Assembly: GCA_021163765.1 (NCBI GenBank)
Contig: JAGGTK010000033.1
Coordinates: 5,923-69,922, forward strand
Origin: a bacterium
GTDB taxonomy: Bacteria; 4484-113
Reading direction: 5' to 3'
DNA length: 64,000 nucleotides
Part shown: one piece after another, positions 13,043 through 19,830 of the stretch
Layout: every line of letters begins with the position of its first letter
Position numbering within the stretch: the stretch's first letter is position 1
Position numbers and translations under genes: made by a program
The notes under the pieces: model-generated
What the model was told of the DNA's origin: nothing
What the model saw: only the letters and a program-made list of their open reading frames with translations
Database searches by the model: none

Positions 13043-13420
13043 ATGAGAAATCTTTTAATCTTGGCGTTGGCCGCGCTGCTCCTGCTAGCGGTGACAGACT
13101 GCGCGAAAATCAAGGCGGGCATCAAGAGTGTCATCAAGGTGACGGTTTACGACGAGACCGGTGCTACGTATGGCTATGTGGCGGTCAAGCTGCTCGACGA
13201 GAACGGCGTAGTGAAATACTCGCAGAACGCGAACGAGCGGGGTGTCACGCTCTTCGAGGGCATAAAGGCCGGGGAATACTCGTTTGAAGTGATAAACGCA
13301 AACGGGGTTAGTATGACCGTGGTCTCGCCCGAGAGCATAACAGTCAGGCTGGGCAAGACGACGAATGTCGATTTGAAAGTGTCGCGGGTTGCGCCGACAG
13401 AACGAAGCTCAGACTACTGA
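13043..13420 (+). CDS. Small secreted protein or lipoprotein with prealbumin/carboxypeptidase-regulatory-like fold
   Basis: Signal peptide ending VTDC; TNERG-like NANERGVTLFEGIKAGEYSFEV pattern; AGGAGG RBS. Confidence 0.7.
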   Translation: MRNLLILALAALLLLAVTDCAKIKAGIKSVIKVTVYDETGATYGYVAVKLLDENGVVKYSQNANERGVTLFEGIKAGEYSFEVINANGVSMTVVSPESITVRLGKTTNVDLKVSRVAPTERSSDY

Positions 13421-13536: not shown

Positions 13537-13565
13537 TTGACAAAGGCAGAAGCCTTGTGTAACTT
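13537..13565 (+). promoter_or_regulatory. sigma70-like promoter for the tdh-acs-acp-kbl operon
   Basis: TTGACA (13537-13542), 17-nt spacer, TAACTT (13560-13565). Confidence 0.55.
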
Positions 13566-13658
13566 TGGTGCACGGGAATGCAGCCGGTTGCCCGCGTGTG
13601 CGGCGGACGAGGTTGTGGTGCCCGATCAATCAGAATATTTCCCCTCTCGGAGGTAGGC

Positions 13659-14645
13659 ATGCGGGAAATCAATCGCATCCTTGTTGTTGGCGCGGTGGGC
13701 CAGATTGGCAGTGAGCTCACGCTGGCATTGCGCGAGAAGTATGGAGCGGACAACGTGGTCGCGGCGGGACGCAAGACTAAGCCTTCACCCGCACTGCGCG
13801 ATTCGGGACCCTTCACCTGGTGCGATGTGGTTGATAGGGAGAAGCTGGACGAGACCATAAAGGAGTTCAGCATCGACACCATCATCAACATGGCTGCCAT
13901 TCTTTCTGCCACGGGCGAGAAGAACCCGCAGCGATGCTGGGACGTGAACGTGACCGGCCTTATCAACACGCTGGAGGCGGCGCGAGACCACAACCTGGCG
14001 CAGGTGCTCTGCCCTTCCAGCATAGCGGTATTCGGGCCCGAGACCCCGCGCGACAATACGCCGCAGGAAACCGTCCTGAAGCCAACGACAATGTACGGTG
14101 TCACGAAGGTGACGGGCGAATTGTTGTGCGACTACTACGTGCGGCGGTTCGGTGTTGATGCTCGCGGGCTGCGCTATCCGGGGATCATTTCGGCCGAGAC
14201 CCTGCCGGGCGGCGGCACCACAGATTATGCTGTGGAAATTTACTACAAGGCAATCGAAGAAGGGCGTTACACGTGCTTTGTGAGAGAGGACACGTCGCTG
14301 CCTATGATGTATATGCCCGACTGCATAAAGGCGACCATGGACCTTATGGCTGCTCCATTCGATGGGTTGAAGCACCACGGCGACTTCAACGTCGGCGCGA
14401 TGAGCTTCACCGCGGGGGAGCTGGCCGCCGAGATAAAGAAGCACATCCCCGGATTCGAGGTTACATACGAGCCTGACTTCCGTCAGGACATCGCGGACAG
14501 CTGGCCCAGCAGTATTGACGACAGTGCCGCGCGGGCGGAGTGGGGCTGGAAGCCGGCGTACGACCTGGCGAAGATGACCGAGGATATGCTAAAGCGCCTG
14601 AAGGAGCGCCACGCGCGGGGTGAGCTATACCAAGCGGGAGCGTAA
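13659..14645 (+). CDS. tdh: L-threonine 3-dehydrogenase (SDR / NAD-dependent epimerase type)
   Basis: GAVGQIGSEL, AAILSATGE, PSSIAVFG, MYGVTK, GLRYPGIIS, PGGGTTDYA, PMMYMPD; GGAGG RBS before ATG 13659. Confidence 0.9.
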   Translation: MREINRILVVGAVGQIGSELTLALREKYGADNVVAAGRKTKPSPALRDSGPFTWCDVVDREKLDETIKEFSIDTIINMAAILSATGEKNPQRCWDVNVTGLINTLEAARDHNLAQVLCPSSIAVFGPETPRDNTPQETVLKPTTMYGVTKVTGELLCDYYVRRFGVDARGLRYPGIISAETLPGGGTTDYAVEIYYKAIEEGRYTCFVREDTSLPMMYMPDCIKATMDLMAAPFDGLKHHGDFNVGAMSFTAGELAAEIKKHIPGFEVTYEPDFRQDIADSWPSSIDDSAARAEWGWKPAYDLAKMTEDMLKRLKERHARGELYQAGA

Positions 14646-14705
14646 CTGAGCTGAGTCCCGACGAAGACGCGGGCCGCGCGAGGGCTCTGGCTGGGCGGGA
14701 ATCCC

Positions 14706-16448
14706 ATGACAACTAAGAGGAATACACCTATGAACTCGACAAACGAGGGGACGAATATTGGCCCGTACGAGGAACGGGTGAAAGACTTCTCGTGGGATGC
14801 GGTTTCCCGCGAACTGGGGCACGAGGATGGAGCGCCCCTTAACATCGGCTGGTACTGCACCGACCGTATCTGCAAACAAGGTCTGGGCGGCAAGACCGCG
14901 CTCATCTGGGAAAGCACCCAGGGGGAGGAGCGCAAGTACACGTTTGACCAGATGCGCCTGTACAGCAACGCTTATGCGAAACTCCTCCAGGAACTGGGCG
15001 TAAAGGATGGTGAGCGTGTTGCCATATACCTGGACCGTGTTCCCTCGTTGTACTTTTCTCTTCTGGGCATCCTGAAGCTTGGTGCCATTGCCGTCCCTAT
15101 GTTCTCCGCGTTTGGAGAAGAGGCGCTACAGGTGCGTCTGGCTAATTGTGACGCGGTCGCCTGCATCACAAGCCCGCGTCTCGCGCGCAAGCTGCGCAAA
15201 GCAAGGCCGGGCCTGCCCGCGCTCAAGCGCGTCATCGTTGTGGATGTCGATGACGAAAGCAAACTCAAGGGAGACGAAATGGCGTATTCGGTGGAGGATG
15301 CGCCGCCGGTCGATGATTTCCCTGTTTTTCCTGCCACCGAGGAGACACCCTCACTCCTGCACTACACATCCGGCACTACCGGTCAGCCGAAGGGCGCGCT
15401 GCACGTACACGGCTCCATATTGTCGCAGTACATCACGACCAAGTGGGTAATGGACCTTAAGCCGGATGACGTTTACTGGTGTACTGCGGATCCCGGCTGG
15501 GTAACCGGCATCTCATACGGCGTCATCGGCCCTTGGAGCCTGGGGGCGACGCAGCTCGTCCTGGAGGTCGGTTTCATCCCTGCCCGCTGGTACTCCGCCA
15601 TAGAAAAGCACCGGGTGTCAGTCTGGTACTCCGCGCCCACTGCAATCCGGCTGCTGATGCGTGAGGGAGAGGAAATCGTCAAGCAATACGACCTGTCATC
15701 GCTGCGCCATCTTTGCAGCGTGGGCGAACCCCTCAACCCGGAGGCCGTGATCTGGTCGGAGAAAGTGTACGGGCTGCCGTTCCACGATACGTGGTGGCAA
15801 ACCGAGACCGGAGCGATAATGATCACAAACTACCCGGGGATGGAAGTGCGGCCCGGCTCAATGGGCAAGCCTTTCCCCGGGACGGCTGCCGCAGTGCTCG
15901 ACGACCGGTTCGAGCCCATCACCGAACCCAACAAGCCGGGTAAGCTGGCGCTCAAGCCGCCGTGGGCCTCGATGTTCCGGGAGTATTGGGGAAACCGCAC
16001 GATATACGAGAGCAAGTTCAAGAACGGATGGTACATAACCGGCGACCGAGCGCGCATTGACGAAGATGGCTACTACTGGTTTGAGGGGCGCGACGACGAT
16101 GTCATCAACACCGGCGGCCACCTCGTTGCGCCGTTCGAGGTTGAGTCCGCCCTGCTGGAGCACGAAGCTGTGGCTGAATCAGCCGCCATCGGTACTCCCG
16201 ACAAGGTAAATATGGAAGTGGTCAAGGCCTACGTGGCGTTAAAGTCCGGTTTTGAGCCAACCAAAGACCTTGAATTGAGTATAATGAACTTTGTCCGGAA
16301 GAGGCTGTCTCCCCTGGCTATGCCGCAATACATCGAGTTTATGGACAAGCTGCCCAAGACTCGAAGCGGCAAGATAATGAGGCGCGTGCTTCGCGCGATG
16401 GACCGGGGAGAGCCCATAGGCGACATATCGACTCTTGAAGACGAATAA
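14706..16448 (+). CDS. acsA: AMP-forming acetate/short-chain acyl ligase (AcsA-like)
   Basis: HYTSGTTGQPKG, WCTADPGWVTG, SVGEPLNPE, DTWWQTETG, LPKTRSGKIMRR. Confidence 0.88.
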   Translation: MTTKRNTPMNSTNEGTNIGPYEERVKDFSWDAVSRELGHEDGAPLNIGWYCTDRICKQGLGGKTALIWESTQGEERKYTFDQMRLYSNAYAKLLQELGVKDGERVAIYLDRVPSLYFSLLGILKLGAIAVPMFSAFGEEALQVRLANCDAVACITSPRLARKLRKARPGLPALKRVIVVDVDDESKLKGDEMAYSVEDAPPVDDFPVFPATEETPSLLHYTSGTTGQPKGALHVHGSILSQYITTKWVMDLKPDDVYWCTADPGWVTGISYGVIGPWSLGATQLVLEVGFIPARWYSAIEKHRVSVWYSAPTAIRLLMREGEEIVKQYDLSSLRHLCSVGEPLNPEAVIWSEKVYGLPFHDTWWQTETGAIMITNYPGMEVRPGSMGKPFPGTAAAVLDDRFEPITEPNKPGKLALKPPWASMFREYWGNRTIYESKFKNGWYITGDRARIDEDGYYWFEGRDDDVINTGGHLVAPFEVESALLEHEAVAESAAIGTPDKVNMEVVKAYVALKSGFEPTKDLELSIMNFVRKRLSPLAMPQYIEFMDKLPKTRSGKIMRRVLRAMDRGEPIGDISTLEDE

Positions 16449-16462
16449 AAGGAGAAAAAATT

Positions 16463-16711
16463 ATGGCGATGCAGGACCTCATCATTGAGTACATCAAGGA
16501 TGAATATCTGGAAGAAGACGACGAAGTGGGTCTCGATACGCCGCTGATATCGAGCGGGATAGTCGATTCCTTCTCGATGGTGTCACTGAAGACGTTCCTC
16601 GAGAACAAGTACAACATCAGCATTCCGGATGAGAAGGCCGCTCCCGAGGCTTTCGATACGGTGCGCAAGATAATCGATCTGGTTCATGAGTTCAATCCCG
16701 ATGCGGAATAA
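16463..16711 (+). CDS. Acyl carrier protein
   Basis: 82 aa, acidic; GIVDSFSMV phosphopantetheine Ser motif; AAGGAG RBS. Confidence 0.88.
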   Translation: MAMQDLIIEYIKDEYLEEDDEVGLDTPLISSGIVDSFSMVSLKTFLENKYNISIPDEKAAPEAFDTVRKIIDLVHEFNPDAE

Positions 16712-16789
16712 CGGGCAAGACGTGGGGCGTCAGGGGTTGCACTCATACAGCCGGACACGTTCATAATTTAAATCGCCAGGAGGATAATT

Positions 16790-18037
16790 ATGGCTTATTC
16801 AGAAAAGGTAAGATCTGCCTATAAAGAGCTGATCGATGGTATCCGAAACGACGGGCTGTTCAAGGAGGAGCGTTACATCCATTCGGAGCAGGGCATTGAA
16901 ATCAAGGTCGAGTTTCCCGCCGGTAGCGAGCCCAGGGATGTGCTCAACTTCTGCGCTAACAACTACCTGGGGCTTTCCAGCCACCCTGACGTGGTTAAGG
17001 CCGCCCACGAGGGGCTGGACACCCGCGGATACGGGATGTCCTCGGTGCGCTTCATTTGCGGCACGCAGGACATACACCGCGAGCTGGAAGAAAAGCTGAC
17101 CGCGTTCCTCGAGACCGAGGATACGGTGCTTTTTGCATCCTGCCTGGATGCCAACGCGGGCCTGTTCGAAGCAGTGCTTTCCGCCGACGACGTAATGATT
17201 GCAGACCGGCTGGTGCACGCTTCGGTCGTAGACGGAATGCGCCTGTGCCCGGCGAAGCACGACACGTTCAAGCACTCCAACATGGAGCACCTGGAGAAGA
17301 AGCTGCAGGAGCACCAGGACGCCCGCTACAGGATGATTATCACTGACGGCGTCTTCTCTATGGACGGCGATATGGCCAAGCTCGACGTGATTTGCGACCT
17401 GGCCGACAAGTACGACGCGATGGTCGTGGTGGACGATTCCCACGCAACCGGCTTCATCGGCAAGCGCGGGAAGGGCACGCACGAGCACTGCGGCGTTCTG
17501 GGCCGCGTCGATGCGATAACGACGACGCTGGGCAAAGCGCTCGGCGGCGCTTCGGGCGGCTGCGTCAGCGGGCGCTCCGAGCTCGTTGAGATGTGCCGCC
17601 AGCGCGCGCGTCCGTACCTGTTTTCCAATACGATGGCGCCGGTGGTCGTTGCTGCGGCGAACAAGGTGCTGGACATAATCACTGCGACTACCGAGCGGCG
17701 TGACAAGCTCGAAGCCAGCACCAAATACTGGCGCGAGGGCCTTGAGAGCGCCGGCTTTGACCTCAAAGCGGGCGATACCCCCATCGTGCCCGTGATGCTC
17801 TACAACGCCAAGCTGGCCCAGGATATGGCGCGCGACCTCTTCGACGAGGGCATCTACGTCATCGGCTTCTTCTTCCCGGTGGTGGCGAAGGGCCAGGCGC
17901 GCATCCGCACTCAGATCTCCGCCGCGCACGAGAAGGAGCACCTCGACAAGGCCCTTGAGGCTTTCACCAAGATCGGCGCCAAATACGACATCCTGGGCAA
18001 GTCTAAAGACGACATCATCGCCAAGTACGGTCTGTAA
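16790..18037 (+). CDS. kbl: Glycine C-acetyltransferase (2-amino-3-ketobutyrate CoA ligase)
   Basis: NFCANNYLGL, SSVRFICGTQDIH, TDGVFSMDGD, TLGKALGGASGG (PLP Lys), RIRTQISAAH. Confidence 0.93.
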   Translation: MAYSEKVRSAYKELIDGIRNDGLFKEERYIHSEQGIEIKVEFPAGSEPRDVLNFCANNYLGLSSHPDVVKAAHEGLDTRGYGMSSVRFICGTQDIHRELEEKLTAFLETEDTVLFASCLDANAGLFEAVLSADDVMIADRLVHASVVDGMRLCPAKHDTFKHSNMEHLEKKLQEHQDARYRMIITDGVFSMDGDMAKLDVICDLADKYDAMVVVDDSHATGFIGKRGKGTHEHCGVLGRVDAITTTLGKALGGASGGCVSGRSELVEMCRQRARPYLFSNTMAPVVVAAANKVLDIITATTERRDKLEASTKYWREGLESAGFDLKAGDTPIVPVMLYNAKLAQDMARDLFDEGIYVIGFFFPVVAKGQARIRTQISAAHEKEHLDKALEAFTKIGAKYDILGKSKDDIIAKYGL

Positions 18038-18039
18038 GT

Positions 18040-19830
18040 TCAGATCTCGTACTCGGTTTCGTGGCGCTTGAGCGCTTCGGGGTAGGCGTGCACTATGTCG
18101 CTTCGCGTCACAATGCCGATTATCTTGCGCGGATTGTCCCGGCTGACAACGGGGAAGCGACCGAGTTTTAGCGTGTCAAACATTTTGAGCACTTCCCACA
18201 CTGACATATCCGGGTACACGGACTTCACGTGCGTGCACATTATCTCCTTGAGCTTGACCTCGTGACCGCGCTTCGTGTCGGTGATGATGTGGCGGCCGAA
18301 ATCGCCCTCGGTGATGATGCCGACCAGAAGCCCCTCGCGGTCAACCACCGGGAAGCCGTTGTGGTGGCTGCTGAAAACAGCGTGGTACGCTTTGTCGTAC
18401 GGCGTGTCCTCGCTGATGCTGTCGACGACTTTGTTCATTATCTCGCCTACCTGGATCTCCTCCAGGACGTTTACCTCGTGCGCAAATCGGTAATGCACCC
18501 CGCGCTTTATCAGCTTCCGCGTGTAGATAGTTGTTTTCCTGAAATGATTGTAGATTACTGTGGCAATCACCACGCCGAACATAACGGGCACGATCAGGTT
18601 GTAATCGCGCGTCATCTCAAAGATAAGCATAATGGAGGTAAACGGCGCCTGTGCGGCCGCGCCGAACACCGCAGCCATGCCGACAAGCCCGTAAGCGCCC
18701 GGATGGGCTATTGAAGTCCCCAGGTATCGTTGAGCTATGGTGCCGAATCCTGTTCCAAGCATGGCGCCCATGAATAAGCTCGGTGACATAATGCCGCCGC
18801 TGGCACCGGATCCAAGCGTGAACGAGGTCGCCAGCATCTTCAGCACGATAAGCATGAGCAGAAGCCATACCGCGTAATCGTTGGTGAGCACTTGGTTGAT
18901 GTAATCGTAGCCAACTCCCATTACCTGAGGTGTCCAGATGGCGATGATGCCGACCAGCAGTCCGCCGAGTGCCGGTTTGAGGATCGGTGGAATGCGAATC
19001 CCGTGCTCGAAGAGGTCGTCCGTTTTGTAAAGCAGATAGGTGAAAGCAAGCGCCACCCCGGCGGCCAGAACGCCCAGAGCCAGGAAAAGCCCGAATTCGG
19101 TGGGATTGACCACGCCGTATGCCGGTATGGCGAAGGAGGGCGAACTGCCGAGGAAATACCATCCTACAACGCTTCCCGCAACAGCAGAGAGAATGACAGA
19201 GGCGAAACTGCGCACCGCGAAATCGCCGATGATAATCTCGATGGCGAAAATACTGCCGGCAACCGGGGCGTTAAAAACCACAGCGATTGCGGCGGCACAG
19301 CCGCAGGCGATTATCCGGCGGGTGCGCCCTGGCGTCAGATTGAAGATCCTTGAAAAAGTTGAGCCGATGCCTCCGCCTATCAGCACGATCGGCCCCTCCC
19401 GACCCGCGCTGCCACCTGAAGTGAGCGTTATCGCGCTTGCCAGCAGCTTCATTAATGCCGCACGCGGCCGGAGCCTCCCTTTCTTGGTGCGGATTGCCAG
19501 CATTAATTCGGGGACACCGTGCCCCTTGGTTTCTGGGGCGAAGTAAGTTGTTATGGGCGCGACAAGCAATCCACCGAGAGTAGGTATCAGGACGATAGCG
19601 GTAACGCCAAGGAAAGGAATCGTTGCAGGATGCAGGACGTCAAAGAAGAAGTGCTGCGTAAGACGCATTACGTGGATAAACAGGACCGCTCCCAGTGCGG
19701 ATGTCACCCCGACAGTAATCGCGAGGATATTTATCGTTAAATTGCTTTCTTGCCACGGGCGGGTTTTGGAGTGCCGGCTAGCGCTTTCCGGATCGTCACG
19801 CTCTGAACTGGCTTCTGACGGGGCACTCAT
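18040..19830 (-). CDS. ClC chloride channel/antiporter with C-terminal CBS pair
   Basis: GHGVPE, GGSAGREGP, FNAPVAG, GGIMSPSLFMG, IYT; CBS motifs HHNGFPVV and LGRFPVV. Confidence 0.9.
   Translation of the reverse strand: MSAPSEASSERDDPESASRHSKTRPWQESNLTINILAITVGVTSALGAVLFIHVMRLTQHFFFDVLHPATIPFLGVTAIVLIPTLGGLLVAPITTYFAPETKGHGVPELMLAIRTKKGRLRPRAALMKLLASAITLTSGGSAGREGPIVLIGGGIGSTFSRIFNLTPGRTRRIIACGCAAAIAVVFNAPVAGSIFAIEIIIGDFAVRSFASVILSAVAGSVVGWYFLGSSPSFAIPAYGVVNPTEFGLFLALGVLAAGVALAFTYLLYKTDDLFEHGIRIPPILKPALGGLLVGIIAIWTPQVMGVGYDYINQVLTNDYAVWLLLMLIVLKMLATSFTLGSGASGGIMSPSLFMGAMLGTGFGTIAQRYLGTSIAHPGAYGLVGMAAVFGAAAQAPFTSIMLIFEMTRDYNLIVPVMFGVVIATVIYNHFRKTTIYTRKLIKRGVHYRFAHEVNVLEEIQVGEIMNKVVDSISEDTPYDKAYHAVFSSHHNGFPVVDREGLLVGIITEGDFGRHIITDTKRGHEVKLKEIMCTHVKSVYPDMSVWEVLKMFDTLKLGRFPVVSRDNPRKIIGIVTRSDIVHAYPEALKRHETEYEI

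Follow-up and report, generated by a model that had tools for sequence, protein, structure and literature searches.

Why should the gene of a carrier protein lie between those of an acetate ligase and a glycine C-acetyltransferase (Kbl), in line with that of a threonine dehydrogenase (Tdh)? The question is raised by a four-gene locus within a 64,000-nucleotide stretch of contig JAGGTK010000033.1 (GenBank assembly GCA_021163765.1, positions 5,923 to 69,922 of the forward strand; hereafter the window) from a bacterium of the GTDB lineage 4484-113. The kbl-tdh operon of Escherichia coli carries out the same two chemistries with the same protein families, but it uses coenzyme A (CoA) and includes neither a ligase, nor an acyl carrier protein (ACP), nor a phosphopantetheinyl transferase (PPTase). 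Comparison of the window locus with its relatives led us to propose that acetate is probably loaded onto a dedicated ACP, and that a specialised Kbl takes acetyl-ACP rather than acetyl-CoA as its thioester partner. The features of the locus are the following.

13537-13565, plus strand: candidate promoter (TTGACA, 17-nt spacer, TAACTT), read directly from the sequence and not called by a consensus scan.
13659-14645, plus strand: L-threonine 3-dehydrogenase of the short-chain dehydrogenase/reductase (SDR) type, GalE-like, 328 residues (PDB TDH structures; Pfam Epimerase; GGAGG ribosome-binding site).
14706-16448 (likely true start 14730), plus strand: AcsA-type AMP-forming acetate ligase, proposed acetate:[ACP] ligase (PRK04319; 9G79).
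16463-16711, plus strand: acidic carrier protein (ACP), 82 residues, with the serine of GIVDSFSM (PF00550; AAGGAG ribosome-binding site).
16790-18037, plus strand: clade-A Kbl (KblA), a glycine C-acetyltransferase-like alpha-oxoamine synthase, proposed to be acetyl-ACP-dependent (TIGR01822; 1FC4; tree).

Open reading frame (ORF) calls together with family and structure matches bore out the four closely spaced genes that the initial annotation had placed here, and the identities it had given them. The four ORFs are co-directional, span 13578-18037 and are separated by gaps of 60, 14 and 78 bp, and no terminator-like site was found between them in our scan. Two gene starts were revised: the ORF start of tdh at 13578 was replaced by 13659, which has GGAGG 6 nt upstream and at which the homology to the TDH structures begins, and the ligase probably starts at 14730 rather than 14706. 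The single promoter described for the locus has a perfect -35 element and a 17-nt spacer, but its -10 element matches the consensus at only 3 of 6 positions, and the consensus scan does not call it; it remains a plausible candidate promoter.

An ACP-based scan with one genome per species returned 486 confirmed matches, from which 80 loci were taken; gene order was checked by tblastn with the four window proteins, and neighbours were compared by clustering all nearby ORFs. The order ligase-ACP-Kbl was found in essentially all 80 loci, wherever the contig was long enough. These loci come from more than 10 phyla, mostly uncultured (Planctomycetota, Bacteroidota, Ignavibacteria/Zixibacteria, KSB1, Calditrichota, Delongbacteria, Cloacimonadota, Acidobacteriota/Aminicenantes, Chrysiogenota, Riflebacteria, Fermentibacteria, and others), and identities to the window proteins were about 60-65% for the ligase, 63-73% for the ACP and 69-81% for Kbl, or roughly 62%, 68% and 71%, respectively. 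The conservation of gene order that the initial annotation had set as a test holds for ligase-ACP-Kbl across phyla but not for all four genes, since no more than 12-18 of the 80 loci have Tdh next to the trio. The class of genome G009 was sampled without bias in a class-wide table (239 genomes, each at least 85% complete), and the ACP was present in 97 of them; within the class of the window's host it was present in 16 of 24 genomes. The carriers number in the hundreds and are uncultured anaerobes of sediments and digesters, and we found no published description of this gene combination in the literature.

Beyond the PPTase AcpS and Tdh, no enzyme was consistently linked to the module among the clustered neighbours of the 80 loci. 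Membership in a larger biosynthetic cluster was considered and rejected, the other recurrent neighbours being lineage-specific and unrelated to the module (succinate dehydrogenase, an LptF/G-like permease, a Ser/Thr kinase, porins and a thioredoxin-like protein). Because the remaining neighbours are of this kind, we regard the cassette as a self-contained module. A flavoenzyme of the DAO family, looked for after Kbl, was absent from all 80 loci. Two Ignavibacteria-labelled loci (L016 and L020) have genes for the succinate dehydrogenase flavoprotein and Fe-S subunits upstream of the ACP and no ligase there; since these genes hold the upstream slot, the ligase is either encoded elsewhere or missing.

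The carrier protein itself is distinct, and its gene is in every case followed by that of a clade-A Kbl (defined below). The serine of its GIVDSFSM motif aligns with Ser36 of E. coli AcpP, the window protein has a net charge of -14 (family average -8.3), and the type II fatty acid synthesis genes of the host genome are located away from the cassette. Two established identities were considered and rejected. As a housekeeping AcpP (TIGR00517) it scores 28.5 bits against a cut-off of 70.45, and 22 of 77 aligned residues are identical to E. coli AcpP; the ACP of the OlsHI ornithine-lipid system (NF052616; PMC12493201) is its best-scoring model, yet the score is 53.8 bits against a cut-off of 130. 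Clustering at 50% identity merges most of the family, and a search at E <= 1e-10 returned 53 representative clusters, a number that marks the family as compact and is no measure of its abundance. In at least 24 loci the gene immediately before the ligase encodes an AcpS-type PPTase, which scores 105 bits on TIGR00516 (cut-off 59.8). The host of the window has a single AcpS, encoded outside the cassette.

In the ligase, the acid site is kept and the thiol site is changed. The window ligase is of the short AcsA type, and its homology to AcsA (PDB 9G79) extends over the full length (E 1.6e-170). Module ligases from 58 loci were placed in one alignment with 9G79 and E. coli Acs; the residue numbering is confirmed by the coincidence of K609 with the SGK motif. 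The residues of the acetate pocket (V310, T311, V386 and W414) and the catalytic K609 are invariant in 58/58 module ligases, and the acid substrate is therefore most simply acetate. In the A8 loop, both reference enzymes have Arg526, which is replaced by Leu in all 58 (motif GGHLVxPFE), and Gly164 is likewise replaced by Ser in every one. A further 120 homologues from a collection of 5.8 billion proteins all read G-H-L-V, so that Leu occupies this position in 178/178 sequences altogether. In Salmonella enterica Acs, the nucleotide end of CoA is bound by a loop that includes R191 and R194 (PMC13404658). The equivalent loop in the module ligases is shortened and carries a net charge of +4.7 +/- 0.8 (+6 in the window ligase), compared with -1 in Bacillus subtilis AcsA and +1 in E. 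coli Acs. Partners of ACPs usually dock the acidic carrier on a basic patch at the pantetheine entrance, and this loop may be where the acidic ACP docks (see also PMC9386255). The module ligase thus shares with AcsA of the B. subtilis type and with S. enterica Acs the acetate pocket, Lys609 and the adenylation motifs, and differs from them in Arg526 to Leu, Gly164 to Ser, the short basic loop and the ACP gene that always comes after it.

Eight loci (L010, L024, L025, L056, L063, L064, L065 and L079) encode, one to three genes downstream of KblA, a protein of about 890 residues (for instance L065:9494-12190) in which a region resembling ADP-forming acetyl-CoA synthetases is followed by a C-terminal GNAT domain, the architecture of Pat/PatZ. 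In enterobacteria the Pat/PatZ protein acetyltransferase acetylates Lys609 of Acs and thereby switches it off. Because the Lys609 equivalent is invariant, the module ligase may be regulated in the same manner.

The Kbl proteins encoded next to the ACP form a lineage of their own. The window Kbl is homologous to the E. coli Kbl structure 1FC4 (E 1e-145) and, when aligned with it, keeps the pyridoxal phosphate (PLP)-binding and catalytic residues: the Schiff-base Lys244 (TLGKALGG), Asp210 and His213 (DDSHA) and the stacking His136 (HAS). In a maximum-likelihood tree, all 66 Kbls encoded beside an ACP fall into one monophyletic group (support 0.94, stem 0.28). Members of this clade A are on average 77% identical to one another across phyla, compared with 53% to the second Kbl paralogues that occur in about 31 loci and 52% to E. 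coli Kbl, which lies outside the clade. These second paralogues are canonical Kbls, as they are 54-62% identical to the E. coli enzyme, and because about 31 loci hold both, clade-A and canonical Kbl appear to be non-redundant. Clade A is further marked by eight fixed changes (E. coli numbering: Y108F, S109P, F112M, I129M, N135V, A168H, L264C and S268A, with Leu as an alternative to Met at position 112) and a constant 19-residue C-terminal tail. Of the two peculiarities first remarked upon in the window Kbl, ADRLVHAS is a true clade marker, LNHAS having become LVHAS through N135V in 95% of ACP-linked Kbls, with Asn in 100% of the canonical ones. The EFPAGSEPRD segment is not diagnostic; it is an insert relative to E. 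coli only, and 12 of 24 canonical paralogues share its length. A diverged form of the cassette was seen in seven genomes of the host's order (G092-G098; for instance G096:C1:1539085-1540588), in which the ACP is 52-61% and the adjacent Kbl 58-60% identical to those of the window, and G094, G095, G096 and G098 have an additional second Kbl elsewhere in the genome.

The conserved gene order, the private PPTase, the separate Kbl clade, a ligase altered at its thiol site only and the complementary charges of ligase and carrier together argue for an ACP-dependent core. The central proposal of the initial annotation, in which the ligase loads acetate onto the ACP and Kbl uses the acetyl-ACP, is thus well supported by comparative evidence, from which we infer both the direction of flux and the use of ACP, in place of CoA, as thiol substrate by the two enzymes. 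The reaction sequence would begin with conversion of the 82-residue ACP to its holo form by a PPTase, in the host the lone AcpS encoded elsewhere and in many relatives the AcpS of the cassette. The AcsA-derived ligase would adenylate acetate and transfer the acetyl group to the ACP thiol, the acidic ACP docking on the basic loop that would replace the CoA-nucleotide loop. The PLP enzyme clade-A Kbl would then condense acetyl-S-ACP with glycine to 2-amino-3-ketobutyrate, releasing holo-ACP, and Tdh with NADH would reduce this product to L-threonine. The net reaction would be glycine + acetate + ATP + NADH to threonine + AMP + pyrophosphate (PPi) + NAD+, and a private, fully chargeable thioester pool together with the cleavage of ATP to AMP could drive an otherwise unfavourable condensation.

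A precedent for such carrier use exists in rhodobacterial sphingolipid synthesis, where the ligase of the AasR/AcpR/SPT trio was shown to charge its own ACP exclusively, CoA not being accepted, and the synthase to favour the acyl-ACP (PMC9386255). Like the cassette, the trio combines an alpha-oxoamine synthase, an adjacent specialised ACP, a ligase annotated as acyl-CoA synthetase and an NAD-dependent reductase acting on the keto product, and the combination that defines it, a synthase with its dedicated ACP and dedicated adenylating ligase in a conserved neighbourhood, was found at 80 loci here. There are also differences. The trio uses long-chain fatty acids and serine, proceeds with decarboxylation to a lipid base and has an ACP of a different family, whereas the cassette has a ligase with a Trp-closed acetate pocket, a Kbl-like synthase (224-323 bits against SPT models with cut-offs of 500-670) and no linked ceramide genes. 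The likeness to the Caulobacter-type sphingolipid locus that had been drawn at the outset is therefore apt as a mechanism but not as membership, since the acid is acetate and the synthase Kbl-like. The cassette derives from the ordinary Tdh-Kbl pair and AcsA, from both of which it is set apart by tree and residues, and it would work like the AasR/AcpR/SPT trio without being a member of that group. If the ACP reading is true, this would be the first Kbl chemistry, and the first short-chain (C2) alpha-oxoamine synthesis, on a dedicated carrier protein, and the principle of the trio would extend from lipid synthesis to central amino-acid and acetate metabolism.

The link to threonine comes from Tdh. 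The window Tdh matches PDB TDH structures (7CGV, E 1.3e-135; 2YY7, E 3.5e-109), its alignment displays the NAD-binding GAVGQIG and the catalytic YGVTK with the YxxxK pair, and it is 88% identical to the orthologue at the same position in L001. Genome-wide, a Tdh of either type was present in 75/80 carriers (SDR-type in 49/80, zinc-type in 27/80), and in 7 loci a classical zinc-type Tdh, scoring 578 bits on NF003808 (cut-off 380), lies near the cassette. Tdh has been recruited directly upstream of [AcpS-]ligase as the SDR type in the window and in L001, as the zinc type in L005 and as both types in the Zixibacteria-type class; the Tdh-fused loci labelled Ignavibacteria and Zixibacteria are not independent lineages, because both fall in one GTDB class. 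As Tdh occurs in 75 of 80 carriers and both types have been recruited upstream, the module appears to be functionally tied to 2-amino-3-ketobutyrate and threonine. The two types were almost perfectly exclusive among the 80 carriers, occurring together only in genome G069. The SDR-Tdh matches in G015, G018, G033, G030 and G067 each contain one in-frame stop (TAG, TGA or TAA) within an open frame, which could be an artefact of ORF boundaries, a pseudogene or recoding.

We lean towards synthesis of threonine from glycine and acetate because acetate-uptake genes adjoin the module and the AasR/AcpR/SPT trio runs in that direction. In L040 (7611-9515), a DUF485 (YjcH-like) protein and an SSF symporter directly follow KblA. 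The acetate-scavenging operon of E. coli, acs-yjcH-actP, has the same arrangement. In L003, L071, L072 and L077, an acetate channel of the GPR1/FUN34/YaaH family occupies the position directly after KblA (for instance L071:7523-8149). Given an ACP-dependent core, the biosynthetic direction is in our judgement slightly the better supported; leader RNAs and riboswitches of Rfam, sought as a further clue to direction, gave no match in the window at E <= 1 and none in 12 loci at the gathering score.

The distribution of threonine synthase (ThrC) bears on the same point. ThrC above the cut-off was missing in 13/33 and then, in a larger set, 20/48 carrier genomes, compared with 0/14 controls, and 11/12 genomes in which Tdh is fused upstream of the module are without ThrC. 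In the class-wide table, the ACP was present in 47% of the genomes without ThrC and in 29% of those with it (odds ratio 0.45, p = 0.006, uncorrected for phylogeny). The host genome, a metagenome-assembled genome of 1.9 Mb and 78.6% completeness, lacks thrB and thrC, whose absence the initial annotation had proposed as a check, but the result is confounded by the absence of the his, trp and ilv pathways.

Several observations weigh against threonine synthesis as the purpose of the module. The host is a broad auxotroph without detectable hisA-I, trpA-E, ilvA/C/D/I or leuA; HisF scores above its cut-off in 6/80 carriers as opposed to 14/14 controls; and ThrC is absent from all 24 genomes of the host's class whether they have the ACP or not, and one of these is a closed chromosome of 4.1 Mb. 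About 48/81 carriers do possess ThrC. In the class of G009, 82 of the 155 ThrC-less genomes lack the module and 24 genomes have both ThrC and the module, and under a strict definition of the ACP the enrichment falls to p = 0.09. The complementarity with ThrC, considered as proof of biosynthesis, was set aside as weakened by class-wide ThrC loss, broad auxotrophy and the modesty of the enrichment. Absence of ThrC thus goes with a modest enrichment of the module, which is no simple ThrC replacement; its hosts are mostly amino-acid scavengers, and it marks a guild of amino-acid-auxotrophic bacteria.

For such likely scavengers of peptides, threonine degradation would be the more obvious need, and the strongest alternative is that the same ACP-dependent enzymes run catabolically. 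Tdh would oxidise threonine, clade-A Kbl with holo-ACP would release glycine and acetyl-S-ACP, and the reversed ligase would convert acetyl-ACP, AMP and PPi to acetate and ATP, providing an energy module for anaerobic degraders of peptides. This would suit the host, which could dispose of the glycine through its glycine cleavage system and in whose genome we detected no AckA, no other acetate-forming route and no family-I pyrophosphatase; its nearest relative lacks AckA as well. Canonical, catabolic Kbl also lies in the same cluster at many loci, which a purely biosynthetic operon would explain poorly. An AMP-forming Acs used in the ATP-forming direction is known from Syntrophus aciditrophicus, whose Acs1 converts the thioester to acetate and ATP with a bias set by the CoA-binding loop (PMC4992975, PMC13404658), although Acs1, unlike the module ligase, is a long-form Acs that acts on acetyl-CoA with no carrier protein. 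Against this stand the AckA genes of 25/33 sampled carriers, which make a new ATP-forming route unneeded there, the acetate-uptake genes that adjoin the module in 5 loci, and the observation that every characterised carrier-loading adenylating enzyme runs in the loading direction (PMC9386255); the fusion of Tdh mainly in ThrC-less genomes would also be left unexplained. On balance we hold the catabolic alternative to be unlikely, and between the two directions we keep our lean towards biosynthesis. If the module were nonetheless catabolic, it would constitute a new substrate-level ATP-forming module.

Returning to threonine synthesis, the complete statement, that the cassette [Tdh]-[AcpS]-ligase-ACP-KblA makes threonine on a private carrier, is a tentative one that we place somewhat short of an even chance. 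It is rather doubtful that the cassette with Tdh is an unrecognised ATP-driven, CoA-independent threonine route that serves as the sole source in ThrC-less lineages. Were this so, the planctomycete class of the host and many Zixibacteria-type genomes would have been wrongly called threonine auxotrophs. As things stand, metabolic reconstruction cannot see the cassette, because every database that names its genes labels them as housekeeping acetate-CoA ligase and glycine C-acetyltransferase. A biosynthetic module would represent a third threonine route and would change predictions of auxotrophy.

An alternative to the ACP-dependent core itself is that the enzymes are ordinary, with Tdh and Kbl degrading threonine in a CoA-dependent manner beside a normal acetyl-CoA synthetase, and with the ACP a passenger or in an unrelated acyl-transfer role. 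The family models speak for ordinary enzymes and against the use of a carrier: the ligase scores 772.5 bits against PRK04319, the NCBIfam acetate-CoA ligase (cut-off 729), and the window Kbl 589.4 bits against the TIGR01822 equivalog (cut-off 493). All named members among the 120 further ligase homologues, and all sources that name the ligase, call it acetate-CoA ligase. It is also the sole AMP-forming ligase found in the host genome and might have to act as the cell's Acs. The module ligases also retain counterparts of R194 and R584, two residues in contact with CoA in S. enterica Acs; as both are kept, the ligases may still use CoA, and we dropped CoA-contact residues as a means of discriminating CoA from ACP. 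Ordinary enzymes would leave without a reason the ACP gene, 65-73% conserved and placed between ligase and Kbl in essentially every locus of more than 10 phyla, the AcpS carried in the cassette, a linked Kbl that is a separate clade beside the canonical one, and a ligase clade in which Arg526 has disappeared and a basic loop, opposite an acidic ACP, has arisen. Nor does any further enzyme that uses an ACP recur as a neighbour. We consider this explanation improbable.

A different product is also a slim prospect. The ACP-dependent condensation might involve another amino acid, or proceed with decarboxylation to aminoacetone or 1-aminopropan-2-ol, giving a small aminoketone or amino-alcohol that could serve as part of a cofactor, a signal or a lipid head group. 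Clade A has Val in place of Asn beside the PLP-stacking His and further changes around the SSCFDAN loop, which would fit a change of substrate or product. The Asn is shared by glycine-using KBL and ALAS. Tdh is non-adjacent in most loci, and carrier-linked alpha-oxoamine synthases elsewhere make aminoketones (PMC9386255). Clade A nonetheless still scores as a Kbl equivalog, 75/80 carriers have Tdh and two unrelated Tdh types have entered the operon, the neighbourhood has no conserved enzymes for tailoring, transfer or export, and 77% identity across phyla resembles core metabolism more than it does a specialised product.

Acetate:HS-ACP ligases that activate the carrier of a lyase form a last point of comparison, as in CitC/CitD of citrate lyase and the malonate decarboxylase ligase. 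As in the proposed cassette reaction, a carrier thiol is acetylated there from free acetate and ATP, but by other protein families, on a group installed by CitG/CitX and with acetyl-ACP as the catalytic cofactor of the lyase. That acetyl-ACP is likewise a catalytic cofactor of a Kbl-ACP complex, which the ligase only primes or repairs as CitC does CitD, would match the logic of pairing an acetate-using ligase with an ACP, but is very improbable, as those carriers bear 2'-(5''-phosphoribosyl)-3'-dephospho-CoA, the cassette encodes an AcpS-type PPTase and has no CitG/X-like gene among its neighbours and no linked CitF-like acyl-exchange subunit, and the Kbl chemistry offers no obvious acyl-exchange cycle.

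The genes that flank the four in the window are of other kinds. Downstream, a 596-residue ClC-type channel with C-terminal CBS-like repeats (18040-19830, minus strand) converges on the operon; its stop lies 2 bp from that of Kbl, and the scan detected no shared terminator between both genes. Upstream, between purM and the operon, a small ORF (13043-13420, plus strand) encodes a lipoprotein-like protein of 125 residues with a signal peptide ending in ...AVTDC, and the pair of purM and small ORF also stands ahead of the cassette in L001 and L005, two related loci.

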